Shown here one piece after another: positions 12,564 to 51,729 of a DNA stretch of 64,000 nucleotides. This stretch comes from an uncultured Candidatus Saccharibacteria bacterium (GTDB lineage Bacteria > Patescibacteriota > Saccharimonadia > Saccharimonadales > EFPC-124). A program made the translations under genes and the position numbers. The stretch's first letter is position 1; every line of letters starts with the position of its first letter. Location: contig CAZJVU010000004.1 in NCBI GenBank assembly GCA_964550035.1, positions 7,820 through 71,819 on the forward strand, given 5' to 3'. The notes beneath the pieces are model-generated. The model was not told where the DNA came from and made no database searches. It saw nothing but the letters and a program-made list of their open reading frames with translations.

Positions 12564-13163
12564 CTAGAACATCCGTAGTTGATTGAGCGGCCACAACCGC
12601 GCCACAACCACGCCCTGTACCTCACGCGTCGGGACAGTGCTCATGCCATTACGCGAATCGAGCGAGTTCTTGCCGAGGCGATTATCGCCGGCCACAAAGA
12701 GTTCATCATCGGAAACAACGCGGTCAACATTGCCGCTGGTGGGGCTTTGCGGACCAACGATAGTTTCATCAGGGTTGATTCCATTCGACGAGCTATCCGT
12801 ATAGACCGTGATACGTCCGTCGCGAACTACCACGTGGTCGCCCGGGAGGCCAACCACACGCTTGACGATAAACATGTCTGGGTCGCCTTGGTTGTAGAAC
12901 GGGTTGGTAAATACAACAAGATCGCCACGCTTTGGGGTGAAGCTTTTGCCGCCGACACCTGCTAGCGTTTTGCCAAGTTTGTTTGTGAGGAGCACATCGC
13001 CAGAGTGGAGTGTCGGCTCCATACTAATGCCATGCACAACATAGCTTCGTACGACGAAAGAGGCGAGTAGTATGGCTACGACTATCGCACCCACTGTCCA
13101 CAGCCCGGATGACACCCAGCTTCGTGCCCGAGGGGAGAGTTTGGCGGTGAGCTTGCTCCACAT
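12564..13163 (-). CDS. lepB: Signal peptidase I
   Basis: N-terminal TM, then SMEPTL (Ser box), KRVVGLPGD (Lys box) and GDNR..S.DSR. Confidence 0.85.
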   Translation of the reverse strand: MWSKLTAKLSPRARSWVSSGLWTVGAIVVAILLASFVVRSYVVHGISMEPTLHSGDVLLTNKLGKTLAGVGGKSFTPKRGDLVVFTNPFYNQGDPDMFIVKRVVGLPGDHVVVRDGRITVYTDSSSNGINPDETIVGPQSPTSGNVDRVVSDDELFVAGDNRLGKNSLDSRNGMSTVPTREVQGVVVARLWPLNQLRMF

Positions 13164-13166
13164 AGT

Positions 13167-13883
13167 CTAGAAAAATTTCGTTTGGTTCAGCGGGAAGATA
13201 CGAGCCAGGAGGCGGCCTTGGATTTTATCGCTTTCGATTGCGCCGAACGACCGAGAATCGAACGAACCGCCAGGCCCGCGGTTGTCGCCCATTACAAACA
13301 CTTGATCGTCGCCGACTGTAACACTGAGCGGTGGCGAGTCAACGAATGTTGGGTCAAGGTGCAGTCCGAGTGCGTCGTTGACGTTGAAGCCGGTGGGGTG
13401 CTCTTTGTTTGTGATGGTCACGACGCCGTTTTCGATAGCAATCTTGTCACCGGGTAGGCCGATAACGCGCTTGATGAGCTGTTCGCTCCTGCCGGTTTGA
13501 TCGACGAGCGAGCTGTCGAGGACGACAATTTGACCGCGTTGAGGAATGTAGTGCTTGCCTTGTATAAGTGCGGCTGTTCGTTCGACCTTATCGATGATGA
13601 GTCGGTCGTTATTGTGGAGCGTCGGGGTCATGCTCGTACCATCCACATAATAAGACTGAAAAACAAACTGGTTAATAAGCGTGGCCGCTATAACAATACC
13701 CATCACAAATGCGGCAACCGAAGCGAAAGCCTTTATGCCGGTAAGCCGTGGCCGCTTCGTGGGCTTTTCTGCCGGTACGGCAAGTGGCTGTGCGTGCGGA
13801 GGCTGACTCTCGGACATGTCGGTGCGGGGCTGCCCGGAGACTTCTTCCGGCTGCTTCGGGGTCGGGGATTGTTCCATAGGCAC
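13167..13883 (-). CDS. lepB: Signal peptidase I, second tandem paralog
   Basis: SMTPTL, KRVIGLPGD, GDNRGPGGSFDSR. Confidence 0.85.
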   Translation of the reverse strand: MPMEQSPTPKQPEEVSGQPRTDMSESQPPHAQPLAVPAEKPTKRPRLTGIKAFASVAAFVMGIVIAATLINQFVFQSYYVDGTSMTPTLHNNDRLIIDKVERTAALIQGKHYIPQRGQIVVLDSSLVDQTGRSEQLIKRVIGLPGDKIAIENGVVTITNKEHPTGFNVNDALGLHLDPTFVDSPPLSVTVGDDQVFVMGDNRGPGGSFDSRSFGAIESDKIQGRLLARIFPLNQTKFF

Positions 13884-15814: not shown

Positions 15815-16579
15815 ATGGAGTTACTCAAGACAGGCATTCGCCGTACAAAAGTGGGCGAGCTAGCCTATATTGGTATCAACGCAGCACTGCCGATCGTGCT
15901 CTTGCTGCTCGTGCTGGACTTTAGCTCTGCTTGGCCGGCGCTTGCGCTTGTGCTGCTCAGCAAATGGCGCGTCTTTGCGCTACGTCCACGATTCTGGTGG
16001 GTGAACATTAAGGCCAACTTCGTCGACTTCTTGGTTGGCGTCAGCTATGTAGGGCTTTTGTACTTTTGCTCCGGCAATCTACCGATTATGCTGCTCCTGG
16101 CGATTGGCTATGGCGTCTGGTTGCTCTATGTAAAGCCTCGTTCTGACCACGCATCGATTATGCTCCAGGCCGGCATCGCACAATTCCTCGCACTGACGGT
16201 GTTGTTCAACCTGTCGACAACAGTTAACGAGTTCTTTGTCATCCTCGGCTGTTTCATTATTGGGTATATCGCCGCACGGCACGTGGTTGCTAACTACGAG
16301 GAAGATCGCGCTAGCCTTATCAGCTACGTGTGGGGCTTAGTCATTTCTCAGCTTGGCTGGTTACTCTATCGGTGGACTATAACGTACGATGTACGATTGC
16401 CGTTTAAGATTCCGCAGATCGCGCTTCTCAGCCTCGTTATTGCGATGGCAGCTGCACGGCTGTATGCTGCCGCAAAGGCACGCCGCCTTAGCATGAGCCT
16501 TGTGCGCTCGACGGCGATTTTTAGCGCAATCCTCATCGCGTTCATTCTCATTTTCGCCCGCTGGGACGTCACGATCTAG
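15815..16579 (+). CDS. Polytopic membrane protein of unknown function (254 aa)
   Basis: At least six hydrophobic segments. No motif recognised. Confidence 0.6.
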   Translation: MELLKTGIRRTKVGELAYIGINAALPIVLLLLVLDFSSAWPALALVLLSKWRVFALRPRFWWVNIKANFVDFLVGVSYVGLLYFCSGNLPIMLLLAIGYGVWLLYVKPRSDHASIMLQAGIAQFLALTVLFNLSTTVNEFFVILGCFIIGYIAARHVVANYEEDRASLISYVWGLVISQLGWLLYRWTITYDVRLPFKIPQIALLSLVIAMAAARLYAAAKARRLSMSLVRSTAIFSAILIAFILIFARWDVTI

Positions 16580-21124: not shown

Positions 21125-21388
21125 CTACTTGGCAGCGAAGAGCTGCCGCAGTTGCTCGCGGATGACGCCCCGAGTCTTCGGCTTGGGGTGCGCCCAGTCC
21201 GTCTCGCTGGAGACGCCGAGGATGTACATGCACTCGCAGACGAGGTCCTCGGGCGGCAGGTCTGCCTGTCCCACATTGGCGACGATGCGTCCCCTCAGGC
21301 GATCGGCATTCAGGTGGAGCCTCTCGCCCAGCATGGCGTCGCAGATGATCGTCGTCGCCTTGGCGATGAGATTCGGGGTGAGTTTCAT
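21125..21388 (-). CDS. Hypothetical protein (87 aa), GC-rich island
   Basis: ORF divergent from the peptidase gene. The two share an AT-rich promoter region at 21400-21480. Confidence 0.5.
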   Translation of the reverse strand: MKLTPNLIAKATTIICDAMLGERLHLNADRLRGRIVANVGQADLPPEDLVCECMYILGVSSETDWAHPKPKTRGVIREQLRQLFAAK

Positions 21389-21509
21389 GACATCACCTTT
21401 CCTGTTGACCCGACAGAAGCCCGATGGGACATCCTTTACTTTTTATACAATAATGGTAAAATATTCGCAAGGTTTTGGGCCTTACAACACGTATCCCAGA
21501 GGGGGTGTA

Positions 21510-22319
21510 GTGACACAACCGAGACGGCAAAGGCGCATCATCATCGTGGTGCAACCATCACCGCAACAGCCGGCCGGTACGCAGCCGCGGCCACGCCCGA
21601 AACGGCGTCGATCAAAGTCGAAAAGCAGTAAAAGCGGATCGATTGTCATGGTTGTCGTGCTTGCCTTGGCGCTTGCTTGGTTCACTCGCGGCAGCAAGGA
21701 GGAGGGCAGTACGCCACCTCCCGCAGCCAACCCGCCCGCAGGCGACTCGCGACAGCTGGCTAGTCAGGTTTTGGGCCTGAAGGACGACATCGTTCTGACG
21801 GCAGCGACCCGAGGCGCGCTCGATGCCTACGCCAAGGGCGGCAAGCCGACTAACTTCTGTGGCGATGTGCTCCCGGAGGTGGACCCGTTGCTCCTGCAGG
21901 TGCTTCTCAAGCTCCAGCGGGATGGGTACCGGGTGATGATCAACAACCTGGGCCTCGGTTCGGACCGCGAGCATGCGCTGTGCTACAACAAAGACGGCAG
22001 CCGCTCACACGATCAGCATACGCAGCTGCGCGCTGCTGACCTGAACGGCATCATCAAGAAGGGCGGATCGCAAACCAACTGGGGCGACATCGCATTTCGC
22101 CCTGGCGCAGAGATGCAGACCATCCAGGCTTACGCTGATGCGTGGCTGGATTTCTTGCCTCGGAACCGAGGTGGTGTAGGTCAAGAAGGCTGCCTCAATG
22201 GTGTCTATCCGCGCCCGGGTGGGTTTCATGTTCGCATCCCGCCTGGGTCGACGAACGCCAACCCCGCATCCTTCACGGACACGTGCGGCCATCTGCATCT
22301 CGATGTGCGTCAGCGCTAG
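21510..22319 (+). CDS. Membrane-anchored LAS-superfamily (M15-like) zinc peptidase, probably a peptidoglycan hydrolase
   Basis: GTG start behind AGAGGGGG. Basic N-terminus plus a TM segment (IVMVVVLALALAW). H-x6-D (HTQLRAAD) and a terminal HLHLD H-x-H motif. Confidence 0.55.
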   Translation: MTQPRRQRRIIIVVQPSPQQPAGTQPRPRPKRRRSKSKSSKSGSIVMVVVLALALAWFTRGSKEEGSTPPPAANPPAGDSRQLASQVLGLKDDIVLTAATRGALDAYAKGGKPTNFCGDVLPEVDPLLLQVLLKLQRDGYRVMINNLGLGSDREHALCYNKDGSRSHDQHTQLRAADLNGIIKKGGSQTNWGDIAFRPGAEMQTIQAYADAWLDFLPRNRGGVGQEGCLNGVYPRPGGFHVRIPPGSTNANPASFTDTCGHLHLDVRQR

Positions 22320-27898: not shown

Positions 27899-28609
27899 AT
27901 GGCATCCACCAAAAATGTTCAAACACCTGAACCTCGCCAGTGGGGTGTGGTTGGTGGAACGTTTTGGGGGTTCGTGGCGTTTTTCTTGCCGCAATACGCG
28001 TTGCTGCCGTTCGTCGATCTCTTCCAGGCTATGCCGATCGATCGCAATACAAAATTATTTGTCTTGCAGGGGGTCTCGGAGCTAGCCGCTGTCGTGCTAC
28101 TGTGGCTTATCCTGAAGTACATATACTTCAGCAATCTTAGGACGATCGGTCTCGGCAAGTTTCAGCCAGGGCTCTTGGGTTGGTCGGTTTTGGCGTTCCC
28201 GTTGTATCTCATTGTATCGACGGCTATTTCAAATATATTTGCAGTTATTTTCCATATCGATCTCTTCCAGGAGCAAAACATCGGCTACACGCATCCTGGT
28301 GGGTTCGAGCTGACGCTCATCTTTGTGGCGCTGGTGCTACTGGCGCCATTTGTTGAGGAAGTACTGTTTCGTGGATTTTTGTTCCGCGCCTTCCGTCGAA
28401 CGTTTGGCTTCTGGATCGGAGCGATAGGGGTGAGCTTGCTGTTTGCGGTCGCGCACGGGCAGGCAAATGTCGGCGTCGATGTCTTTGTGCTCAGCATGTT
28501 TCTGTGTTATTTGCGCGAGAAAACCGATTCGCTCTGGCCGTCGATCGCTCTGCACGCCTTGAAAAATTTGGTTGCATTTATAGTTCTGTTTATAATAAGG
28601 GGCAATTAG
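27899..28609 (+). CDS. CPBP-family intramembrane glutamic endopeptidase (CAAX protease-like)
   Basis: EEVLFRGFLF, FAVAH and ALHALKN motifs. Confidence 0.75.
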   Translation: MASTKNVQTPEPRQWGVVGGTFWGFVAFFLPQYALLPFVDLFQAMPIDRNTKLFVLQGVSELAAVVLLWLILKYIYFSNLRTIGLGKFQPGLLGWSVLAFPLYLIVSTAISNIFAVIFHIDLFQEQNIGYTHPGGFELTLIFVALVLLAPFVEEVLFRGFLFRAFRRTFGFWIGAIGVSLLFAVAHGQANVGVDVFVLSMFLCYLREKTDSLWPSIALHALKNLVAFIVLFIIRGN

Positions 28610-38599: not shown

Positions 38600-39121
38600 A
38601 TGAAGGCGATTACGACCGAGCGATACGACCAGGTCATCGCCGCGTCCGGCCTCAAACCAAAATTTGTGCGCGAACTGCGCCCGCGTTTTGACCTTGTGTC
38701 CGACTGGGAAGATCGAGAATTTTTGCCGATCACTAACCGTAGTGGAAACGATGGCGTGCTATGGGTCGAGCACGGCGGTGGCGTGTATGTGCTACCGTAT
38801 TCGCTGAGTCGTGGCATCATCGATAAAGCCAGCGGCCGGGCGCGACCAGTGATCTGCGACCTCTGCTACACGCAGCAACTTGGCACGGCCGCGGCGCGAA
38901 TAAGTTTTGCCATGCCGGGCAGGGGAGGGGCGAGTCGAAGCTTGCTCTGCTGCGCCAACCTTGACTGTAACGAGCACGCCCGCGGTAAGACGAAGGCGAG
39001 TCTGCGCTCCAAAACGCAACTGCGCGAAAGCATCTCCGTCGGAGACCGAGTCTTACGTCTACATCGTCGACTCGGCGAATTGCTGGACCTACTCCAAGCC
39101 GAAAAAGTAATTTCCGTCTAA
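38600..39121 (+). CDS. FBP-domain protein (EF-G-binding protein family, C-terminal treble-clef zinc finger)
   Basis: CDLC...CCANLDCNEH cysteine pattern. Starts 2 nt after the serS stop. Confidence 0.5.
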   Translation: MKAITTERYDQVIAASGLKPKFVRELRPRFDLVSDWEDREFLPITNRSGNDGVLWVEHGGGVYVLPYSLSRGIIDKASGRARPVICDLCYTQQLGTAAARISFAMPGRGGASRSLLCCANLDCNEHARGKTKASLRSKTQLRESISVGDRVLRLHRRLGELLDLLQAEKVISV

Positions 39122-39123
39122 AG

Positions 39124-39170
39124 TGAGCGAAGCCCCGAGCGGGCCGGAAGATTCCGGCCACACTCGGGGC
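39124..39170 (-). repeat. Cassette-boundary hairpin R1
   Basis: TGAGCGAAGCCCCGAGCGGGCCGGAAGATTCCGGCCACACTCGGGGC, 20 nt downstream of the gene 1 stop. Confidence 0.85.
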
Positions 39171-39190
39171 TTTTTGGCGCGTCTCTGACG

Positions 39191-39424
39191 CTACTGGTTG
39201 CGTGATTTCCGCTTCCTCCTCAGGAGGATGGGAATGACCACAACGGCGGCGCCACTGATGTAGGCAAGTGCCAGCAACGCGCTGTAGCCCTCCTGCAAAT
39301 GCAACAATGCGACGGACCCGAGTGCTGTACCGGCCGTCAAGGCGGCGTAGGCGACTGCCTTCCGGCGAGCACCGACGGTGAGGCCGGTGATGCAGCCCCC
39401 GAGGATCAGCAGTATCCACCACAT
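39191..39424 (-). CDS. Array gene 1: small 3-TM protein with a polybasic tail (77 aa)
   Basis: GAAGGAG SD. TM1 GGCITGLTVGARRK. Tail LLRRKRKSRNQ. Confidence 0.7.
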   Translation of the reverse strand: MWWILLILGGCITGLTVGARRKAVAYAALTAGTALGSVALLHLQEGYSALLALAYISGAAVVVIPILLRRKRKSRNQ

Positions 39425-39463
39425 GGGTGTGACTCCTTCGATGGTGAGCCTGACGTGCCTGGT

Positions 39464-39757
39464 TCAGCGCTTGCCCTTCTTCGGCCGCTTGGGCCGGATC
39501 CGGCGGTTGGGTCGGTCGGCGCCGAAGATGTGGCCGATGAAACCGCCGCACGCCAGAGCCGCAGGGAAGCTGAGCCACTGCAGCGTCGTGAGCTCGAACG
39601 GTTTGCACCACACCAGGATGATGGCCACGGCGCCGACGAACGCCACCGCGCCCAGCAGCTCGTGCGTGTTCTTCTCGTGCCACCGTCCCTTGAAGAAACA
39701 GTAGCCTGCCAGCACCATGAATGCGCCAGCGAGACCAAATGCGACCTGTGCGGTCAT
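39464..39757 (-). CDS. Array gene 2: small 3-TM protein with a polybasic tail (97 aa)
   Basis: AGAGGGG SD. Tail RPNRRIRPKRPKKGKR. Confidence 0.7.
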   Translation of the reverse strand: MTAQVAFGLAGAFMVLAGYCFFKGRWHEKNTHELLGAVAFVGAVAIILVWCKPFELTTLQWLSFPAALACGGFIGHIFGADRPNRRIRPKRPKKGKR

Positions 39758-39797
39758 TGGTACCCCTCTGAGGAATGGATGGACAGAACGTTTAATG

Positions 39798-39825
39798 ATT
39801 ATAGTATAATTGTAGATATTGTCAA
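39798..39825 (-). promoter_or_regulatory. Cassette A promoter
   Basis: Minus strand TTGACA-N16-TATAAT. Confidence 0.6.
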
Positions 39826-39855
39826 TTTAGTAGGGCAGAGTCATACCCTAAAAAT

Positions 39856-39903
39856 TGAGCGAAGCCCCGAGCGGGCCGGAAAATATCCGGCCACACTCGG
39901 GGC
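39856..39903 (-). repeat. Cassette-boundary hairpin R2
   Basis: TGAGCGAAGCCCCGAGCGGGCCGGAAAATATCCGGCCACACTCGGGGC. Confidence 0.85.
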
Positions 39904-39938
39904 TTGTTGTACGTACCGACCGTGTGCGCGGGTCGGCT

Positions 39939-40202
39939 TCAGGACCCTTCGGCGTGCTTGCGCTTTTTCCGCCGCAGCTTCACCGAAGTAGTGACGAAGG
40001 TTGCGAGCACGAGGGTGGCTGACCAGGCGGCGACCGTGCCCACGTTCTCACCCTTGAGGGGGTCGACCCCTCGCGCCAGCAGGAGCGCCCAGGTGCCCAG
40101 CATGAGGCACGTGCCTGCGACCAACCGCGACACATCTCGGTTGATGGCGCCAACGACGACGCCGGTCACGAGGGCGAGGCCGACTGCTATCACAAAGGTC
40201 AT
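39939..40202 (-). CDS. Array gene 3: small 3-TM protein with a polybasic tail (87 aa)
   Basis: AAGGAG SD. VDPLKGE turn. Tail KLRRKKRKHAEGS. Confidence 0.7.
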   Translation of the reverse strand: MTFVIAVGLALVTGVVVGAINRDVSRLVAGTCLMLGTWALLLARGVDPLKGENVGTVAAWSATLVLATFVTTSVKLRRKKRKHAEGS

Positions 40203-40231
40203 CTACTTTACTCCTTGTTGGTGCAGGATGT

Positions 40232-40504
40232 TCAGGGGTGACGCTTGGACTTGCGCAGTTGCTTGAGCCGCCTCGCACCTACAGCGCTCATGACCGCTGA
40301 GGAGACTGTGACGCTGACCACCAAGGCGATCAGAAAGTTTGCCGTTTCCGGCTCGTTTGCGGGGTCGTGTCCCACAATCACGAGCGCCAACCACGCAGCG
40401 GCCAAGATGACCGCCCCGGCGAGGAGCTTCTGCCAGGCACGTAGGGAGGCAGCGGCGAGTATGCCGCACAGAAACCCTGTGATGACAAATACGACTACAG
40501 CCAT
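40232..40504 (-). CDS. Array gene 4: small 3-TM protein with a polybasic tail (90 aa from ATG 40504)
   Basis: AGAAGG SD before the internal ATG. GHDPANE turn. Tail RRLKQLRKSKRHP. Confidence 0.65.
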   Translation of the reverse strand: MAVVVFVITGFLCGILAAASLRAWQKLLAGAVILAAAWLALVIVGHDPANEPETANFLIALVVSVTVSSAVMSAVGARRLKQLRKSKRHP

Positions 40505-40613
40505 GACGTAACCTTCTTGTTCGGCTCGGGTTTGTGCTTCGATGATCGCGCTGCACATGGAGGGCAGCTGTCAGTACCGCACATCCTTATGCAGGGGTAG
40601 AGCGTACTATATT

Positions 40614-40642
40614 CTTATAGTATAAGTTCAGTATTATGTCAA
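40614..40642 (-). promoter_or_regulatory. Cassette B promoter
   Basis: Minus strand TTGACA-N17-TATAAG. Confidence 0.6.
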
Positions 40643-40670
40643 TGTAACTAGCGTACAGCTTGGCATAAAA

Positions 40671-40717
40671 TGAGCGAAGCCCCGAGCGGGCCGAAGATAT
40701 CCGGCCACACTCGGGGC
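40671..40717 (-). repeat. Cassette-boundary hairpin R3
   Basis: TGAGCGAAGCCCCGAGCGGGCCGAAGATATCCGGCCACACTCGGGGC. Confidence 0.85.
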
Positions 40718-40738
40718 TTTTGTTGCTGATCGATGCTT

Positions 40739-41029
40739 CTAGCGGCTCCAGCGCTTGGGCTTGGGACGAACGTCCTTCAGCCTCTTGCGCTTGGCCAGCT
40801 TGAGCTTCACGATGCCGGCGACGATCGCCGCGAGCCCAAGGCTGAACAGCCAGGCGAGCACCACGGTCTTGTCGGGGTTGGGGAAGGGGTTGAGCCCCGT
40901 CAGCATCAGGATGATCTGAGAGATCAGCATGATGAACCCTACGGCCATCAGTCGGGGCACCACCTTTCGGACGCCGACGGCGGCGATGCCGGTCAGAATC
41001 CCCGACGCGATCACCAGAAGTACCAGCAT
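40739..41029 (-). CDS. Array gene 5: small 3-TM protein with a polybasic tail (96 aa)
   Basis: AGGAGG SD. TM1 ASGILTGIAAVGVRK. Tail KLKLAKRKRLKDVRPKPKRWSR. Confidence 0.7.
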   Translation of the reverse strand: MLVLLVIASGILTGIAAVGVRKVVPRLMAVGFIMLISQIILMLTGLNPFPNPDKTVVLAWLFSLGLAAIVAGIVKLKLAKRKRLKDVRPKPKRWSR

Positions 41030-41053
41030 GATTCCTCCTACGACGGTGGTGCG

Positions 41054-41320
41054 TCAGCGACGCGGCGTCTGGGCTGCCGTCTCGCGCTTCCGCTTCACGA
41101 TCACCGCGATGAAGGCGGCGATGATGCTGCTGCCCGTGAAGGTGGCCGCCATCGCGGCGTTCTGCATCGGCTCGAACACCAGCGCCTTCGCGGCGAGGCC
41201 CGCGCCCAGGAGCATGAACATGGCACCGCAGATCCGGAAGAACTGAAGCTTGGAGCCGAGGGCCCAGAAGCCGCAGAGCGCTCCGGTGCCGATCAGCAGG
41301 GGCCAGAGGTAAAGGGGCAT
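41054..41320 (-). CDS. Array gene 6: small 3-TM protein with a basic tail (88 aa)
   Basis: AAGGAG SD. VFEPMQN turn. Tail VKRKRETAAQTPRR. Confidence 0.7.
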   Translation of the reverse strand: MPLYLWPLLIGTGALCGFWALGSKLQFFRICGAMFMLLGAGLAAKALVFEPMQNAAMAATFTGSSIIAAFIAVIVKRKRETAAQTPRR

Positions 41321-41359
41321 CGGTATGTCTCCTTAGTATGGTGGATACAGCGTATTGTA

Positions 41360-41388
41360 TTTATAGGATAAGTTCAATATTTTGTCAA
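41360..41388 (-). promoter_or_regulatory. Cassette C promoter
   Basis: Minus strand TTGACA-N17-TATAAA. Confidence 0.6.
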
Positions 41389-41406
41389 TTCTACTGTGTC
41401 TAGAAA

Positions 41407-41454
41407 TGAGCGAAGCCCCGAGCGGGCCGAAGAATATCCGGCCGCACTCGGGGC
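41407..41454 (-). repeat. Cassette-boundary hairpin R4
   Basis: TGAGCGAAGCCCCGAGCGGGCCGAAGAATATCCGGCCGCACTCGGGGC. Confidence 0.85.
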
Positions 41455-41482
41455 TTGGAACGCGCTGGTCGACGGGCGCAGC

Positions 41483-41755
41483 CTACTTGCCATGTGTGTC
41501 GTCGTACCACTCACGAGTGAAGTATCCAGCGAGTGCGCCCACCGCCGCACTGCCGGCGAAGACGACGATGAAGAGCAACCAAGAGGATTGCGCCTGCGCC
41601 TGCAGCTGCTCGAACTTTGGGTCGAACGGGTACAGGGCGGCCCCCGCGGCCACCATGATGCTGACGGCCACCGCCATGGCGAGACCGAAGCGTCTGATGA
41701 AGCCGATGGCCACACCACCGAGCGCGCCGGCAACAACCAAGAACGTGGTGATCAT
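41483..41755 (-). CDS. Array gene 7: small 3-TM protein (90 aa); the only member without a polybasic tail
   Basis: AGAGAGG SD. TM1 VAGALGGVAIGFIRR. PFDPKFE turn. Ends in YFTREWYDDTHGK. Confidence 0.7.
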   Translation of the reverse strand: MITTFLVVAGALGGVAIGFIRRFGLAMAVAVSIMVAAGAALYPFDPKFEQLQAQAQSSWLLFIVVFAGSAAVGALAGYFTREWYDDTHGK

Positions 41756-41783
41756 GAGTACACCTCTCTGCTGTAGGGAGCGG

Positions 41784-42044
41784 TTATCGTTTACTCTTCT
41801 TTTGACCGCCCTTCAGGACGCCGATGACGGTAAGCGTGATGAACGCCACGCTGCCATAGATCACCCCCACGGCGATGAGCTTCGACCACTTGGTGGGGTC
41901 GAAGCCGACGCAGAGCAGGGTGACGAAGCCGCCCGCCGTGATGACGGCTGCCACCATGACAGCGACATCTTCGCGCCGAATGACACCAAATGCGAGTCCG
42001 CACAAGATGCCGGCGACCAAGGTCACCAGAAAGCTCGGGAACAT
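41784..42044 (-). CDS. Array gene 8: small 3-TM protein with a basic tail (86 aa from ATG 42044)
   Basis: AAGGA SD. TM1 VAGILCGLAFGVIRR. GFDPTKW turn. Tail KGGQKKSKR. Confidence 0.65.
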   Translation of the reverse strand: MFPSFLVTLVAGILCGLAFGVIRREDVAVMVAAVITAGGFVTLLCVGFDPTKWSKLIAVGVIYGSVAFITLTVIGVLKGGQKKSKR

Positions 42045-42130
42045 GGCTCGAGTATCCTTGTCTGTGAAGTCGGCGCGCGCTAAGACTGAAGCGCGATTCT
42101 GTTCTCGCACTGAGGCGAGAAGCTTATACA

Positions 42131-42159
42131 TTTATAGTATTAAATAATTGCTTTGTCAA
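42131..42159 (-). promoter_or_regulatory. Cassette D promoter
   Basis: Minus strand TTGACA-N17-TATAAA. Confidence 0.6.
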
Positions 42160-42179
42160 TGTTTTCTTGGTGTCTAAAA

Positions 42180-42224
42180 TGAGCGAAGCCCCGAGCGGGC
42201 CGGGTTTCCGGCCACACTCGGGGC
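42180..42224 (-). repeat. Cassette-boundary hairpin R5
   Basis: TGAGCGAAGCCCCGAGCGGGCCGGGTTTCCGGCCACACTCGGGGC. Confidence 0.85.
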
Positions 42225-42267
42225 TTGTTGCGCCGCACGACGGACGCGCTGTGGGTTGGTCGACTTC

Positions 42268-42552
42268 TCAGCGTGAGCGCTTCTTGGGCTTGAACTTCCG
42301 CTTCACGATGGCCGCGGTGACGAGCCAGGGGATCCCGGCTGCGATACCCAGTACTAGCGTGGCCACCCCGTCCCGGCCGTACAGGATTCCCATTCCGGCA
42401 GTGGCCACGGCGGTGAGAAACATGAGCCAGCCGAACATCTTGAAGAGCAGCGTGACCCGCGGGTGGGTGGCCAAAACGCCATACGCAGCACTGCCGAAGA
42501 CCGCGAGCAGCCAGAACCACCAGGGCACATTCGCAAACGTGAGCGTGATCAT
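42268..42552 (-). CDS. Array gene 9: small 3-TM protein with a polybasic tail (94 aa; alternative start ATG 42570)
   Basis: Tail VKRKFKPKKRSR. Only gene in cassette E. Confidence 0.65.
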   Translation of the reverse strand: MITLTFANVPWWFWLLAVFGSAAYGVLATHPRVTLLFKMFGWLMFLTAVATAGMGILYGRDGVATLVLGIAAGIPWLVTAAIVKRKFKPKKRSR

Positions 42553-42584
42553 CTCCCTTGTGCAGTACACGATAGTACTGCAAA

Positions 42585-42613
42585 ACTATAGGATGGAATC
42601 ACGTGTCTGTCAA
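42585..42613 (-). promoter_or_regulatory. Cassette E promoter
   Basis: Minus strand TTGACA-N17-TATAGT. Confidence 0.6.
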
Positions 42614-42645
42614 TAGTTCAACTCGTAGCGTGCTCTCTATAAAGC

Positions 42646-42683
42646 GGCGTCTGAGCGGGCCAGTGTGGCCGCGCCCAGACGCC
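42646..42683 (-). repeat. Cassette-boundary hairpin R6 (diverged copy with a compensated stem)
   Basis: GGCGTCTG-AGCGGGCC-agtgt-GGCCGCGC-CCAGACGCC. It retains GAGCGGGCC and the fold, but the outer stem has a different sequence. Confidence 0.7.
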
Positions 42684-42697
42684 GTACGGACGGTCGG

Positions 42698-42946
42698 TTA
42701 CTTCTTGTTCTTCTTGGTGATGTAGGCCCTCACGAAGCCCACGATCATCGCCGAAACGACGGTACTGATCAGGAGGGCCAGCCAGGCCGAATCATCCTTG
42801 TGCGCATCGTACCCGAGGCTGTACAGGGCGATGCCCGTGGCCACCGCAATGACAAAAGCGATGAGAATCGCAAGCGACACTTGCCGGAGGCCACCGATCA
42901 GGGCGCCGCATGCAGTACCGGCGACGATTGTTATGAAGTAGAACAT
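42698..42946 (-). CDS. Array gene 10: small 3-TM protein with a basic tail (82 aa from ATG 42946)
   Basis: GGGAG SD 5 nt upstream. TM1 VAGTACGALIGGLRQ. GYDAHKDD turn. Tail ITKKNKK. Confidence 0.65.
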   Translation of the reverse strand: MFYFITIVAGTACGALIGGLRQVSLAILIAFVIAVATGIALYSLGYDAHKDDSAWLALLISTVVSAMIVGFVRAYITKKNKK

Positions 42947-42980
42947 AAAAACTCCCAACACGGACGCTGAGGTCAATAGC

Positions 42981-43013
42981 TTTATATAAGTATAGATTTG
43001 TCTGTGTCGTCAA
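42981..43013 (-). promoter_or_regulatory. Cassette F promoter (weaker match)
   Basis: Minus strand TTGACG followed 18-19 nt later by TTATAT/TATATA. Confidence 0.4.
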
Positions 43014-43028
43014 GCGATATCCAGCGAA

Positions 43029-43076
43029 TGAGCGAAGCCCCGAGCGGGCCGAAGGGTATCCGGCCGCACTCGGGGC
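43029..43076 (-). repeat. Cassette-boundary hairpin R7
   Basis: TGAGCGAAGCCCCGAGCGGGCCGAAGGGTATCCGGCCGCACTCGGGGC. Confidence 0.85.
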
Positions 43077-43104
43077 TTGGGTCGGCGTGTCTGGTTGGAC
43101 TCAC

Positions 43105-43377
43105 CTAGTGCCGTTTTTTGGATCGACGACCGGGCTGGCTGCCACCCAGGCACCCGCATACACTGCCGCATGCGAACAGGGTGAAGACGGCGGCCCATTG
43201 CGCCAGACTGTACTCCAGTGCTTGCCCCCATACGCACATGACGATGGCGGCCGATACCAGCGCCAGCACTCCAGCCCGTGTGATGGCGATCTTCGTGCGG
43301 GAGAATCCTCTGAAGATGCAGAAGCCAGCTCCGGCGATGAGCAGGCTCGTGATGACGCCCGCAAGTTGTACGGACAC
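43105..43377 (-). CDS. Array gene 11: small 3-TM protein with a basic tail (90 aa, GTG start)
   Basis: AAGGAGG SD 3 nt before GTG 43377. Tail GRRSKKRH. The longer track ORF runs through gene 12 in another frame. Confidence 0.6.
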   Translation of the reverse strand: MSVQLAGVITSLLIAGAGFCIFRGFSRTKIAITRAGVLALVSAAIVMCVWGQALEYSLAQWAAVFTLFACGSVCGCLGGSQPGRRSKKRH

Positions 43378-43415
43378 GGCCCTCCTTGAGGCTCGGATGA
43401 AGCGTACGGCGCAGG

Positions 43416-43673
43416 CTACTTCTTGGCCTTGCGCTTCTTCTTGCTGTCCTTCGCGATGGTGACGATCGTCGTGACGACAGAGGTGCTGGCCAGGAAGGCC
43501 AGCCAGGGCAGAATGTCCTCGCGCGCGTCGTATTCGAGGCCAAACAGCACAAAGGACGTGATCAGCACGATGGCACCGTCGATGGCGAACGCGACGCGCA
43601 GTCGCTGGACGCCACCGAGCACGACGCCACACAGCACTCCTGAGAGGACGGTGACCAAGTAGTACACGAACAT
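43416..43673 (-). CDS. Array gene 12: small 3-TM protein with a polybasic tail (85 aa)
   Basis: AAAGGAG SD. TM1 LSGVLCGVVLGGVQR. EYDAREDILPW turn. Tail KDSKKKRKAKK. Confidence 0.7.
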   Translation of the reverse strand: MFVYYLVTVLSGVLCGVVLGGVQRLRVAFAIDGAIVLITSFVLFGLEYDAREDILPWLAFLASTSVVTTIVTIAKDSKKKRKAKK

Positions 43674-43710
43674 GACTGACTCCTTTAACGTGGATGTTCA
43701 GTTCATTGTC

Positions 43711-43739
43711 TTTATAGTATTTATTTATGAGTTTGTCAA
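43711..43739 (-). promoter_or_regulatory. Cassette G promoter
   Basis: Minus strand TTGACA-N17-TATAAA. Confidence 0.6.
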
Positions 43740-43753
43740 ATTATAAGCTCGTA

Positions 43754-43800
43754 TGAGCGAAGCCCCGAGCGGGCCGGAAAGTTCCGGCCACACTCGGGGC
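43754..43800 (-). repeat. Cassette-boundary hairpin R8
   Basis: TGAGCGAAGCCCCGAGCGGGCCGGAAAGTTCCGGCCACACTCGGGGC. Confidence 0.85.
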
Positions 43801-43832
43801 TGTATGGCGTTGGAGCTGCGACCCTGTAGGGT

Positions 43833-44087
43833 TTAGCGCCGGCGTTTGTCTTGCTTTTTGCGCATGACGGCGAGCACGACGATCGTGATCACCACGCTGC
43901 CCACTGCGCTGCCCAACCAGGCGAGCAGTACGTTGACATTCGAGGGTTCGAAGCCGGCGCCCACCAGAATGAACGCGGTGACGACGGTGATGCCGACTGC
44001 GATCGGCAGGTAAATGATCGCCCGCTGGAGCGCACCCAGCACAATGCCCGTCAGGATGCCTGCGACGATCACAATCAGAAAGAGCAT
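43833..44087 (-). CDS. Array gene 13: small 3-TM protein with a polybasic tail (84 aa from ATG 44087)
   Basis: GGAGGG SD. TM1 VAGILTGIVLGALQR. GFEPSNVN turn. Tail MRKKQDKRRR. Confidence 0.65.
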   Translation of the reverse strand: MLFLIVIVAGILTGIVLGALQRAIIYLPIAVGITVVTAFILVGAGFEPSNVNVLLAWLGSAVGSVVITIVVLAVMRKKQDKRRR

Positions 44088-44126
44088 GACTGTTTTCCCT
44101 CCAAGAGCGGTAACGAGTACGATATA

Positions 44127-44155
44127 GTTATAGTATATAGAGATGGCATCGTCAA
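44127..44155 (-). promoter_or_regulatory. Cassette H promoter
   Basis: Minus strand TTGACG-N17-TATAAC. Confidence 0.55.
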
Positions 44156-44238
44156 ATATTACTTTATGCTCGCGGAGTTGCGCGAGGGTTGTTATAATAA
44201 AAGGAGCCAAATCAGGGAAGAAAGGTGTAGCGAGTAGC

Positions 44239-44619
44239 ATGATTGCTCGGATTGACAAGTCAGGAATCAACCTTGAGTTAGATGACGATGTGGTCAAATA
44301 CATTGATCGCAAGATCGGCCGGTTAGATCGTTACATCCCACGCGGTGCCCGCATGTCGGTGCACGCAGTGGTGACGATTCGTGAGACCGGGAACCAGAAT
44401 GGGAACAAATATGAGTGTGAAGTCATTTTGCATGTGCCCGGTGAAACGGTAACCGCAAAGGACTCCACGATGAACAAGTTCGCTGCTGTCGATATTGTCG
44501 AGGCCAAGCTGCGTAACCAGCTGCACAAATACAAGACAACACACGGCGCGCGAAGCCACCGCGGCCTTTTGCGCCGAGTGAAGGAGAGGCTTTTTCTGAA
44601 TTCGACCGAAGAAGCTTGA
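44239..44619 (+). CDS. hpf: Ribosome hibernation promoting factor / RaiA family
   Basis: MIARIDKSGINLELDDDVVKYIDRKIGRLDRY...ECEVILHVPG pattern. A TGTTATAAT extended -10 lies upstream. Confidence 0.7.
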   Translation: MIARIDKSGINLELDDDVVKYIDRKIGRLDRYIPRGARMSVHAVVTIRETGNQNGNKYECEVILHVPGETVTAKDSTMNKFAAVDIVEAKLRNQLHKYKTTHGARSHRGLLRRVKERLFLNSTEEA

Positions 44620-49100: not shown

Positions 49101-50386
49101 GCCAACGGGTAGCGATAGTTGGTTACGGCGTCGAAGGCCGGTCGGCATATCGTTACTTTGCCGCACAGGGCGCCGATATCACGGTGTACCACAAGGAACG
49201 CCCAACCGATCTGCCCGCAGACGTACATGTGGTTGAAGATCCGCACGCCACCGAGCTGTACGGCTATGACGTCGTTGTCCGTTCGCCGGCTGTTCCGCCC
49301 AGCAGCATAAAAACCGACGGACGTATTACAACCGTCACCAAAGAATTCTTCTCCGTCTTTGACCCGACGCGTATCATCGGTGTGACAGGGAGCAAAGGGA
49401 AGGGGACGATGAGTGCACTGGTCTATGAGATGCTGAAGGCCGCCGGCAAGCGCGTGCACCTTGGTGGCAATATTGGCGTGCCCGCGCTTGATCTGCTGCC
49501 AGATGTAAAGGACGGCGACTATGTTGTGCTCGAGCTGAGTAGCTTTCAGCTGTGGGATTTTGAGACAAGCCCGCACATCGCGGTTGTGGGAATGATCACG
49601 CCCGATCACTTGGACGTGCACAAAGATTTCGATGACTACATCAACGCCAAGGCGAACATTGCTCGCTATCAGAAACCAGAAGATGTGATTATCTACCATC
49701 CGACGAACGAGCATTCCAAATGGATTGCCGACCAGTCGGCCGCGACGACGAAACTTCGCTACAACACACCTGAAGCTGCGCACATTACAGACGGCTACTT
49801 TACGATTGCCGAGCAGAAGATTGCTCAGACGAGTGACGTACAGATTCCTGGTCAACACAATCTCGAAAATATATGCGCCGCACTGACTGCAGCCTGGCAA
49901 GTGACACAAGATACCGAGGCGTTGGGGCGTGCGATTGCTGGATATAAAGGCCTCGAGCATCGTATCGAATTCGTTCGGAACGTCGACGGCGTGGATTACT
50001 ACGACGATAGCTTTGCGGCGAGTACGAGCGCGGCTGTCGTTGCGGTCCAGGCATTTGACGGACCGAAGGTGCTGATCCTCGGTGGCTACGACCGCGGGAT
50101 TGACCTCGAGCCAATGGTCAGTGAGCTTGCTGAGTTGAACTTGCGCAAAGTTTTGTTGATTGGTCAGACTGCGGCGCGGTTGGCGAGCTCCTTTGAAGCG
50201 GCCGGTAAACGCGATATTGTCGAGCAGCTCGGTGCCGTTCCCATGAGTGATATCGTGGCGCGAGCGCACGAAATTGCTCAGAAAGGCGATGTTGTTGTCC
50301 TGTCGCCAGGAAGCGCCAGCTTTGATATGTTCAAGGATTACAAAGACCGCGGCAACCAGTTCAAGAAAGCGGTGGAGGCGCTATGA
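49097..50386 (+). CDS. murD: UDP-N-acetylmuramoyl-L-alanine--glutamate ligase (MurD family, possibly MurD2 type)
   Basis: Rossmann N-terminus VAIVGYGVEGRS and Mur ligase P-loop GVTGSKGKGT. ATGA overlaps with both neighbouring genes. Confidence 0.8.
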   Translation: MSQRVAIVGYGVEGRSAYRYFAAQGADITVYHKERPTDLPADVHVVEDPHATELYGYDVVVRSPAVPPSSIKTDGRITTVTKEFFSVFDPTRIIGVTGSKGKGTMSALVYEMLKAAGKRVHLGGNIGVPALDLLPDVKDGDYVVLELSSFQLWDFETSPHIAVVGMITPDHLDVHKDFDDYINAKANIARYQKPEDVIIYHPTNEHSKWIADQSAATTKLRYNTPEAAHITDGYFTIAEQKIAQTSDVQIPGQHNLENICAALTAAWQVTQDTEALGRAIAGYKGLEHRIEFVRNVDGVDYYDDSFAASTSAAVVAVQAFDGPKVLILGGYDRGIDLEPMVSELAELNLRKVLLIGQTAARLASSFEAAGKRDIVEQLGAVPMSDIVARAHEIAQKGDVVVLSPGSASFDMFKDYKDRGNQFKKAVEAL

Positions 50387-51729
50387 TGTTTGATCCAGAG
50401 ACTATTAAGACATTCGAAATTCGTGGCTACGATTTCGACCAAGAAAGTGGGGAAGTCCTACTCCGCTATGCACTACTTGGTCCGAGCGAGCCCGTTACAT
50501 TTACTGAGCGAGTAGTTATCCCTGTCAGTAATAGCGACCCGCAGGTACTTGAAGTCGCTGATCGGCTGGCACGTCTGCTTTTGCTCGCGGCAAGTGTCAG
50601 CTACTACAAGATCGCTGCGCCAGGTCAAGTGAGCGTGACCGTGCCGATAACGGCGCCAGAGAAACAGTTCCTGGCGGAAGTCATCCGACGCGGTATGACC
50701 GAGTTCGCATATGTTAATAACCTGCCACAAGCACTTACACCAACCATTCAGGTGACAGAGATTATCCCGAACGAACCGCGTGCCTTGCAAGACATCGCCG
50801 AATCAAAGCCGCTCGTCGCGGTTGGTGGTGGCAAAGATTCGATTGTGACTACCGAGGCTCTCCGCGCAGCCGATTTCACACCCACGCTCTTTTCGGTTAA
50901 TGCCTACACGCCCATCACAAATACCGTCGAGTGCGCTGGGTTGCCCTACTTGCAGGTCAAGCGTCAGATCGACCAGACCATGGGCGACCTTAACGACCAT
51001 GGCGCGCTGAATGGCCACGTGCCAATTACGATGATTAACTCAGTTCTAGCGCTGATGACTGCAGTCATGAACGGCCTTACGACGGTTATTTTTAGCAATG
51101 AGCGCTCGGCGTCCATCGGCAATCTTGTGTGGCACGGTATCGACGTGAACCACCAGTGGGCTAAGAGCATCGAAGCAGAGAAGCTTTTGCAAGACACTCT
51201 TGCGGCTGTGGTTTCGCCGTCGCTTACGTATTTTTCGTTGCTCCGCCCACTATCCGAGCTGCGTATCGCCCGGCAATTTGCCACGCTGCAGCAATATCAC
51301 GACATTTTTACTAGCTGCAATCGCGCGTTTCATCTTGATCCGACCAAACGTCGTATTTGGTGCGGTGAGTGCGACAAGTGCCGCTTTGTATTCCTCATAC
51401 TTGCACCGTATATGAGCAAAGAGCAGCTCGAAGCTGTCTTTCACAAGAATATGTATGACGACGGTGCGCAGCTTTCTGGCTTTCGCGAACTCTTAGGTAT
51501 CGAGGGCCACAAGCCGCTTGAGTGCGTCGGCGAAATTGCCGAATCGCGACTGGCGCTATTGATGGCTGCAGAGAAAGAGGAGTGGAAGCACACTGCGCTC
51601 GTACCCGTTTTACTACGCGATCTTCCGCAAGATGCGCTTCCTAGCCCAGCACAAGAGAAGGAAATCTTCGAGACTGGCGAGCACCTTATCCCAGAGACAT
51701 ATCTCTCGGCTCTTGAGCAGATTCGTTAG
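50383..51729 (+). CDS. PP-loop-like ATP-utilising protein translationally coupled to murD; candidate MurL-type UDP-MurNAc-L-Ala-L-Glu epimerase
   Basis: VAVGGGKDS (SGGxDS-like PP-loop) and CGECDKCRF. 4-nt overlap with murD. The MurL assignment is from memory of the MurD2/MurL pathway and is not verified. Confidence 0.45.
   Translation: MMFDPETIKTFEIRGYDFDQESGEVLLRYALLGPSEPVTFTERVVIPVSNSDPQVLEVADRLARLLLLAASVSYYKIAAPGQVSVTVPITAPEKQFLAEVIRRGMTEFAYVNNLPQALTPTIQVTEIIPNEPRALQDIAESKPLVAVGGGKDSIVTTEALRAADFTPTLFSVNAYTPITNTVECAGLPYLQVKRQIDQTMGDLNDHGALNGHVPITMINSVLALMTAVMNGLTTVIFSNERSASIGNLVWHGIDVNHQWAKSIEAEKLLQDTLAAVVSPSLTYFSLLRPLSELRIARQFATLQQYHDIFTSCNRAFHLDPTKRRIWCGECDKCRFVFLILAPYMSKEQLEAVFHKNMYDDGAQLSGFRELLGIEGHKPLECVGEIAESRLALLMAAEKEEWKHTALVPVLLRDLPQDALPSPAQEKEIFETGEHLIPETYLSALEQIR

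Follow-up and report, generated by a model that had tools for sequence, protein, structure and literature searches.

An array of eight promoter–hairpin cassettes encoding hypervariable, lineage-restricted small membrane proteins in a soil Saccharibacteria genome

Why would an ultra-small parasitic bacterium carry a long run of small membrane protein genes, packed in units with expression signals of their own, in the middle of a housekeeping region? Like other Patescibacteria, Saccharibacteria live as obligate epibionts and have tiny genomes. The locus that raises this question belongs to a soil Saccharibacteria and was analysed within a 64-kb stretch of DNA (hereafter the window, 64,000 nucleotides (nt) in full). 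It runs on the minus strand from 44155 to 39124 and comprises eight cassettes with 13 open reading frames (ORFs) of 77–97 codons, each cassette consisting of a sigma-70-like promoter, one or two ORFs and a strong stem-loop. Three cassettes hold a single gene (g1, g4 and g5) and five hold two, and the hairpin-to-hairpin spacing (725–849 nt) rises with gene number. A separate gene call on a public contig of 6.2 kb (L001), identical to the window base for base, gave all 13 ORFs as well, and alignment of the nine intergenic segments recovered the repeated module. Gene calls and Pfam annotation placed serS and an FBP_C-domain gene on one side of the array, and hpf and secA on the other. A preliminary description of this DNA had proposed the eight-cassette, 13-ORF layout, a module length that follows gene number and the position between serS/FBP and hpf/secA, all of which were confirmed by the ORF list, the L001 gene calls, the hairpin spacing and the annotation of the flanks. 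We are highly confident in describing the locus as a lineage-specific, hypervariable array of eight autonomous units. What is new is the combination of orphan protein families with an unusual autonomous-cassette architecture and homogenised regulatory junctions; a literature search found no description of the array locus.

The lineage restriction became apparent from the same locus in relatives. A genome scan with hpf led to Candidatus Saccharibacteria metagenome-assembled genomes, which bears out the affiliation guessed beforehand, and look-ups of the few homologues recovered the locus from other samples. Compared to the window, which carries 13 genes in eight cassettes between hpf and FBP and served as the reference for identities, the locus L005 holds nine genes in six cassettes (SerS and SecA 94–95%, hpf 89% and FBP 82% identical), and L003 holds five genes in four cassettes (SerS 93%, hpf 91% and FBP 83% identical). 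L024/L025 are a variant of L003, with an hpf 99% identical to that of L003, and L002 together with L028/L029 represents another array variant. No array gene is present in L007 (SerS 90%, hpf 81% identical) or L008 (SerS 83%, hpf 71% identical), where FBP is followed by approximately 70–100 nt and then the conserved hpf promoter, with both array and hairpin absent. Across the window and every fetched locus, family members and hairpins were found inside arrays only, which, together with the absence from L007 and L008, indicates that the array is a clade-specific accessory insertion of variable content. The proposal of an accessory, diversifying locus was thus borne out by gene counts of 0, 5, 9 or 13 in close relatives and by a ratio of nonsynonymous to synonymous substitution rates (dN/dS) 10–20 times that of the flanks. 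The accompanying idea of an old, maintained expansion was not upheld, since the array is absent at SerS identities of 90% and 83%, and array proteins differ by 8–26% where hpf is 99% identical. Judging from these comparisons, fast evolution appears to explain the divergence of the array better than age does.

The rate of protein change was quantified between orthologues. The dN/dS of orthologous array genes ranged from 0.17 to 1.56 and was mostly 0.5–1.0, with some pairs at 0.17–0.28, compared to 0.03–0.07 for the flanking genes. In the closest pair, L003 and L024, nonsynonymous and synonymous codon differences numbered 43:16 in the array versus 2:12 in the flanks (Fisher P = 9e-5); synonymous differences were alike in both (approximately 5–6% of codons), whereas nonsynonymous differences were approximately 18-fold commoner in the array. 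The corresponding counts between the window and L005 were 110:44 in the array versus 114:618 in the flanks (P = 9e-42). Orthologues have diverged by 25–55% in amino-acid sequence despite lengths that are exact or differ in frame (97/97, 77/77 and 86/87 amino acids (aa)), every gap being in frame, and hydropathy, tails and Shine-Dalgarno (SD) sites are retained among them. Because the ORFs stay open and these features persist, the genes are most simply viewed as maintained, translated membrane proteins under loose or diversifying constraint.

Hydropathy and charge analysis revealed three hydrophobic segments in all 13 products and a Lys/Arg-rich tail in 12 of them, and the positive-inside rule predicts an outside N-terminus and an inside basic C-terminal tail. 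AlphaFold2, supplied with a 17-sequence alignment of the largest family (family A, see below), placed helices at residues 2–22, 27–43 and 51–83; on both counts, membrane insertion is plausible, as had been supposed. Pairwise phmmer comparisons, run with shuffled and reversed controls, linked nine products at mutual significance as family A (g1, g2, g4, g6, g7, g9, g10, g11 and g13). A richer profile added g8 (E = 1e-8; hhalign 91%), bringing the linked members to 10, and gave a weak link to g5; both had stood alone in the pairwise comparisons. The remaining two, g3 and g12, form a separate family B, whose hhalign match to family A (68%) covers only the third transmembrane (TM) segment and the tail, a match from which relatedness is not demonstrable. 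The preliminary description had taken all 13 products for paralogues of one family, which holds for the ten members of family A and weakly for g5, but not for g3 and g12. The single architecture ascribed to them likewise survives for the three hydrophobic segments and the basic tail, while the GxxxG-R/K and G-F-D-P motifs occur in family A only. Conserved in family A are G10xxxG14 in TM1, an Arg or Lys at the TM1–TM2 turn (R21/22) and a GxDP turn before TM3; conserved in family B is a KGR(W/Y)HEKN cytoplasmic loop. A family B homologue of 98 aa, P0022, carries the JGI name 'apolipoprotein N-acyltransferase', which is almost certainly spurious because the protein has three TM segments in 98 aa. 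The families combine freely, and cassettes of the compositions A alone, B alone, A+B, B+A, A+A and B+A+A were observed. This variable composition argues against obligate two-component units, and the idea of obligate two-gene toxin/immunity or heterodimer pairs was dropped on these grounds.

The regulatory parts of the cassettes are far more uniform. Seven promoters consist of TTGACA or TTGACG, a 16–17 nt spacer and TATAAN, with scores of 10–12 of 12, and the g4 promoter is weaker (TTGACG, 18–19 nt, TATATA), so the near-consensus promoter first assigned to every cassette is found in seven of the eight. Similar promoters elsewhere in the window indicate that this is the ordinary promoter type of the organism. 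The SD sites are strong and accessible. As read earlier from the sequence, the stem-loops sit 14–43 nt past the last stop codon of each cassette; in the window they take the form AGCCCCGAG-YG-Y-GGCCGG-loop-CCGGCC-CGCTCGGGGCT, followed by TTCGCTCATTTTAG. The 18-mer core GAAGCCCCGAGCGGGCCG occurs seven times in the 64 kb, always within the array, against a chance expectation of 0.09; seven of the eight stem-loops are near-identical, and the eighth (about 42646–42683) is a diverged copy. Folding energies lie between −35 and −38 kcal/mol (z about −6 to −7). In 24 hairpins taken from five arrays, pairing extends to 97.8% of cells, the outer pair alternates between A-U and C-G (11 versus 10 copies), and two diverged orthologous hairpins show several double changes that preserve the stem.

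One stem pair is G-U in 15 of the 24 copies, which corresponds to an A-C mismatch on the opposite strand, and the sense RNA folds better than the opposite strand (−38.3 versus −36.0 kcal/mol). These results favour an element at the 3' end of the coding-strand RNA, either a terminator or a stabiliser, over a DNA recombination site. Past the stem, the sense strand reads GGGGCUUCGCUCAUUUU, that is, one or two U residues, a 6-nt spacer (CGCUCA) and UUUU. A stable GC-rich stem-loop is present at the 3' end of each predicted transcription unit, as in intrinsic terminators; because CGCUCA parts the U-tract from the stem, we only infer that the stem-loops act in this way and terminate efficiently. On the opposite strand, the last stem-loop, h8, is followed by UUUUU and, by its sequence, can terminate FBP. 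The hairpin had no match in a viral collection, and the 13 single matches from a scan of the JGI metagenome collection were all attributable to chance and located inside coding regions (12 in contigs of 59–77% GC and one at 55%). Rfam returned no family for the whole window, and neither tRNA nor tmRNA was detected in it. A plus-strand antisense promoter or tiny hairpin RNA (TTGTCA...TAAAAT, overlapping the conserved tail) was also considered and rejected, as its spacing was workable in one cassette only.

Comparison of hairpins between genomes revealed a pattern opposite to that of the genes. The nearest neighbour of a hairpin is almost always a copy from the same genome. Window hairpins combine GGCCGGA...TCCGGCC and an A..T base pair with the tail TCGCTCA, whereas the internal hairpins of L005 combine GGCC-TAYCCA-GGCC and a C..G base pair with the tail TTGCTCA; the within-genome likeness persists even upstream of the orthologues g12 and L005_f1. 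The junction hairpins therefore look homogenised within each genome, as in concerted evolution, while the genes diverge. In addition, the tails after internal hairpins copy the 3' end (stop and last codons) of the convergent FBP gene. The internal (5990–6010) and FBP-proximal (6712–6735) tails of L005 have 14 nt after GCTCA in common, or 19 nt with GCTCA included, and the internal tail of the window (e.g. 42180–42195) contains TTTAGAC, the complement of FBP GTC-TAA-A. We take these copies for a molecular fossil left by tandem duplication that began at the FBP terminator. The array would thus have been seeded, probably, by duplication of the FBP-proximal terminator, and would have grown, shrunk and been reshuffled by unequal homologous recombination between junctions of approximately 100 nt, each comprising putative terminator and promoter. 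Homogenisation of the junctions could have proceeded by unequal homologous recombination or by gene conversion, which would keep them alike in any one genome while the coding parts change at nearly the rate of silent sites.

Database searches placed the proteins in no described family, in line with the initial failure to recognise them. Scans of the 13 proteins against Pfam, NCBIfam, PHROGs and PADLOC yielded nothing above threshold. When the family A profile was run exhaustively with HMMER against 1.84 billion representative proteins, it returned 16 matches, nine of them the window's own, and the remaining seven all came from the same locus in close relatives. Word-indexed searches of 5.8 billion proteins brought family B to seven members and the g5 type to two. 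The PDB sequence-profile search gave only three-TM matches of the NuoK/MrpC type (E about 0.2), and Foldseek matched nothing in the PDB and, in BFVD, only viral models at non-significant scores (E 3.9–9). Neither tblastn of g9 against 50,697 phage genomes nor blastn of the array against plasmids produced a match. The best sub-threshold sequence matches were to NuoK/MrpC/MBH proteins (PF00420, Oxidored_q2), which resemble the array products in their size (approximately 100 aa) and three TM segments. Among ten products scanned, g10 alone matched PF00420 (E = 0.003; 17.7 bits against a cut-off of 26.1). Unlike true members, the array proteins remain below all thresholds and have no respiratory-complex or Mrp genes nearby, and the PF00420 match is probably compositional or topological.

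Read along the minus strand, cassette 1 opens with promoter P1 (TTGACG-17-TATAAC, 44127–44155), followed by g1 (43833–44087; 84 aa, family A, three TM segments and a basic tail, also called in L001) and the terminator-like stem-loop h1 with its tail TTCGCTCA (43754–43809). Promoter P2 (TTGACA-17-TATAAA, 43711–43739) precedes g2 (43416–43673; 85 aa, family A), g3 (43105–43377; 90 aa, GTG start, family B) and h2 with its tail (43029–43084). The weak promoter P3 (TTGACG-18/19-TATATA, 42982–43013), which has the same form in the orthologous L002 promoter, stands upstream of g4 (42698–42946; 82 aa, family A; 73% identical to its L002 orthologue P0006) and of the diverged stem-loop h3, whose stem is kept by compensatory changes and which is orthologous to L002_h3. 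Cassette 4 is composed of P4 (TTGACA-17-TATAGT, 42585–42613), g5 (42268–42552; 94 aa, a separate subfamily with L002_b1 as its only relative) and h4 with the tail TTCGCTCATTTTAGAC (42180–42235); the start codon of g5 is uncertain because the SD abuts the ATG. Cassette 5 comprises P5 (TTGACA-17-TATAAA, 42131–42159), g6 (41784–42044; 86 aa, family A; 45% identical to its orthologue L005_a2), g7 (41483–41755; 90 aa, family A, the sole member without a basic tail) and h5 with its tail (41407–41462). It is followed by P6 (TTGACA-17-TATAAA, 41360–41388), g8 (41054–41320; 88 aa, a remote family A member), g9 (40739–41029; 96 aa, family A) and h6 with its tail (40671–40726), and then by P7 (TTGACA-17-TATAAG, 40614–40642), g10 (40232–40504; 90 aa, family A), g11 (39939–40202; 87 aa, family A) and h7 with its tail (39856–39911). 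The last cassette carries the promoter with the full score, P8 (TTGACA-16-TATAAT, 12/12, 39798–39825), g12 (39464–39757; 97 aa, family B; 75% identical to its orthologue L005_f1) and g13 (39191–39424; 77 aa, family A; only 48% identical to its orthologue L005_f2). Its stem-loop h8 (39124–39179, both strands) is common to g13 on the minus strand and the convergent FBP_C gene on the plus strand; it begins 3 nt past the FBP stop, and TTTTT follows on the plus strand.

The flanking FBP_C-domain gene (PF16571), the source of the copied 3' ends, lies at 38600–39121 on the plus strand, and hpf (Ribosomal_S30AE), divergent from cassette 1, at 44239–44619 on the plus strand; in the array-less relatives only the 70–100 nt mentioned above lie between the two. 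The space between P1 and the promoter of hpf holds a small, perfect hairpin, CTCGCGGAGTTGCGCGAG (44169–44186), that abuts the hpf TGTTATAAT box; a similar sequence is present in L003 and L005, and the hairpin may serve the divergent promoters as an operator or insulator. Irregular units were observed in the relatives. In L005_e1 (L005 5615–5917), both genes of the d1/d2 cassette of L003 are fused at a common ATCGTC in TM1, and at L002 1109–1255 only a 47-codon, internally deleted d1 is left. At about 1733–1805 of L024 the promoter of the third cassette is gone, and the hairpin is followed directly by SD and gene. In one L005 cassette, gene c1 is preceded by a short ORF, MIGWIVNIAANGKKTARS (L005 4671–4727), that has an SD of its own. 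Pfam annotation of the window returned only housekeeping genes and no toxin, secretion, phage or defence gene; endolysin, integrase, transposase, recombinase and RAYT genes were likewise not found. Three plus-strand ORFs of 254, 396 and 448 aa among the housekeeping genes (15815–16579, 21129–22319 and 50383–51729) had no Pfam match at E<=1e-4, and two signal peptidase I paralogues (Peptidase_S26) stand in tandem on the minus strand (12564–13163 and 13167–13883). An Rce1-like CAAX protease (PF02517, Abi family) is encoded at 27899–28609 (plus strand), approximately 10 kb from the array and with no evident link to it; members of this family are often annotated as bacteriocin immunity proteins.

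What, then, could the products do? Our favoured reading, which we put forward tentatively at a probability of roughly 0.35, is that they would constitute a diversified, strongly expressed, immunity-like protective battery in the epibiont's own inner membrane. Each protein would bind a membrane-inserting aggressor helix to helix through its GxxxG-type TM1, and several versions would be produced together at high level. Candidate aggressors are pore-forming toxins of hosts or competitors, or phage membrane proteins. The reading is suggested by an arms-race signature, namely rapid protein change together with gain and loss in a conserved neighbourhood, by the co-residence of several families, and by the conserved GxxxG-type packing motifs of family A. 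It also draws on two precedents: small TM proteins provide immunity to pore-forming effectors (10.1101/676247), and Actinomycetota hosts attack Saccharibacteria via secreted Esx effectors (PMC13622651). Several observations weigh against it. A cognate toxin, a secretion system, phage genes and defence genes were all missing from the window, and PADLOC gave no match for any array protein. A dN/dS near 1 would be just as likely for any hydrophobic helix under relaxed constraint. The externally exposed parts amount to a few residues, so recognition would have to happen within the membrane. The AlphaFold model is of modest quality (predicted local distance difference test score 71, predicted template modelling score 0.40), the stem-loop has no U-tract directly after the stem, and the genomic count of hairpin copies covers 64 kb only.

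By analogy, the array comes closest to a polyimmunity or orphan-immunity array in the way it would work, and its proteins come closest to class I holins in appearance; membership of neither is demonstrable, because the tested features of linkage and family membership were not found. Small membrane immunity proteins are exemplified by those against pore-forming colicins, with three or four TM segments, and by the immunity peptides for circular bacteriocins. TM immunity proteins against pore-forming effectors of the type VI secretion system, such as Sip6, are a further example (10.1101/676247). With such arrays the locus has in common small polytopic inner-membrane proteins with basic segments, tandem diverged paralogues, fast evolution with presence/absence variation between close strains and, as proposed here, protection exerted within the membrane. 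Unlike them, it has neither a toxin gene or toxin remnant nor a secretion system nearby in the window, its proteins show neither sequence nor fold similarity to any immunity family, and its units each have a promoter of their own, near consensus in seven of the eight, and a conserved, terminator-like stem-loop.

Among the other explanations, one holds that the products are bulk proteolipids which condition a membrane built of scavenged host lipids, copy number being selected for amount and diversity merely tolerated. We regard this as possible but improbable. It would account for near-consensus promoters and strong SDs on each unit, for a dN/dS of about 0.5–1 with retained hydropathy and basic tail, for variable copy number and for the lack of partner genes nearby. 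However, dosage selection usually keeps copies alike, whereas here divergence of the coding parts goes with homogenised regulatory parts. The array also houses two or more unrelated families (A and B) and further subfamilies, specific motifs are conserved, and close relatives manage without the array. The preliminary description had also raised holins, and holin-like or permeabilising proteins could serve autolysis, release or perforation of the host membrane at the attachment site. Size (about 80–100 aa), three TM helices, the predicted N-out/C-in topology and the highly basic cytoplasmic C-terminal tail all match class I holins of the lambda S105 type, and the best, non-significant structural and profile matches include holins. 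Those matches are weak, though (Pfam Phage_holin_4_1, E = 0.42; Foldseek, E about 4–9), and that of one of the 13 proteins to phrog_785 (E = 0.007) is at chance level given 13 × 38,880 tests. With no endolysin, phage lysis cassette or other phage context in the 64 kb, no match in phage genomes and no evident export route to the host membrane, a holin-like or permeabilising role is quite unlikely, all the more so as 13 such genes, set in a housekeeping region and driven by consensus promoters of constitutive appearance, would kill their own cell and are ill-suited to a lethal timer. The small hydrophobic ORFs might instead be tandem type I toxin-antitoxin-like units, or decaying, non-functional ORFs, and here too the chances appear slim. 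The ldr/rdl and ibs/sib loci are tandem type I toxin loci in which small hydrophobic ORFs, each with its own promoter and terminator, follow one another head to tail as in the array; a dN/dS near 1 and the existence of truncated or fused copies would also fit decay. The array products are much larger, however, at 77–97 aa with three TM segments rather than a single TM in under 60 aa, their translation signals are strong and accessible and their promoters near consensus, and no consistent antisense promoter was found in the array. Decay is further opposed by exact or in-frame orthologue lengths at 25–55% divergence, by the dN/dS of 0.17–0.28 in some pairs and by the conserved motifs.

The hairpins have also to be weighed as DNA sites. 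If the cassettes were mobile in the manner of integrons or of repetitive extragenic palindromes (REP), a recombinase or HUH enzyme encoded elsewhere would act on them. Serial short cassettes bounded by a conserved imperfect hairpin, content that varies among close relatives and hairpins homogenised per genome would be expected of such a system, yet we consider it very unlikely. IntI integrase, transposase and RAYT genes and an attI site are all missing from the 64 kb, and each cassette has its own promoter. The attC core test was negative, as the array hairpins read AGCCCCGAG-YG-N-GGCC...GGCC-MGCTCGGGGCT and lack RYYYAAC...GTTRRRY. The G-U wobbles favour sense RNA over DNA or antisense, and the hairpin behaves like a sense-strand RNA terminator. 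Unlike dispersed REP or bacterial interspersed mosaic elements, the hairpin is confined to arrays in the window and in every fetched locus (seven of seven copies in the 64 kb lie inside the array), and array growth can be explained by tandem duplication, which in its plain form predicts the copy of the FBP 3' end in the internal tails. A cassette system without an integrase can also be envisaged, though we hold it to be unlikely: the terminator-promoter junctions would be portable expression modules and recombination handles with which the reduced genome of an ultra-small epibiont could keep creating, reshuffling and strongly expressing a private repertoire of orphan membrane micro-proteins, on which the outcome of host contact would depend. 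The proteins may then neutralise host Esx-type or other membrane-acting effectors, or form a feeding interface, and the within-genome homogenised hairpin with its conserved bulge would be the recognition site of a co-evolving factor.

No other stretch seen in this otherwise housekeeping region evolves as fast or varies as much in copy number as the array, which also carries unusually strong expression signals. Fast evolution, copy variation and strong signals together are the signature expected at an antagonistic interface, and the array, which is restricted to a narrow clade, offers a well-defined candidate, open to testing, for the interface between epibiont and host or between epibiont and phage. 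Should the products be protective or offensive, the candidate phyla radiation would have a new class of effectors or immunity factors built from membrane micro-proteins, and the array would then also be a clean natural example of uniform regulatory modules with diversifying cargo. If they are mere membrane filler, the locus still shows the birth and expansion of orphan small-protein families in reduced genomes.

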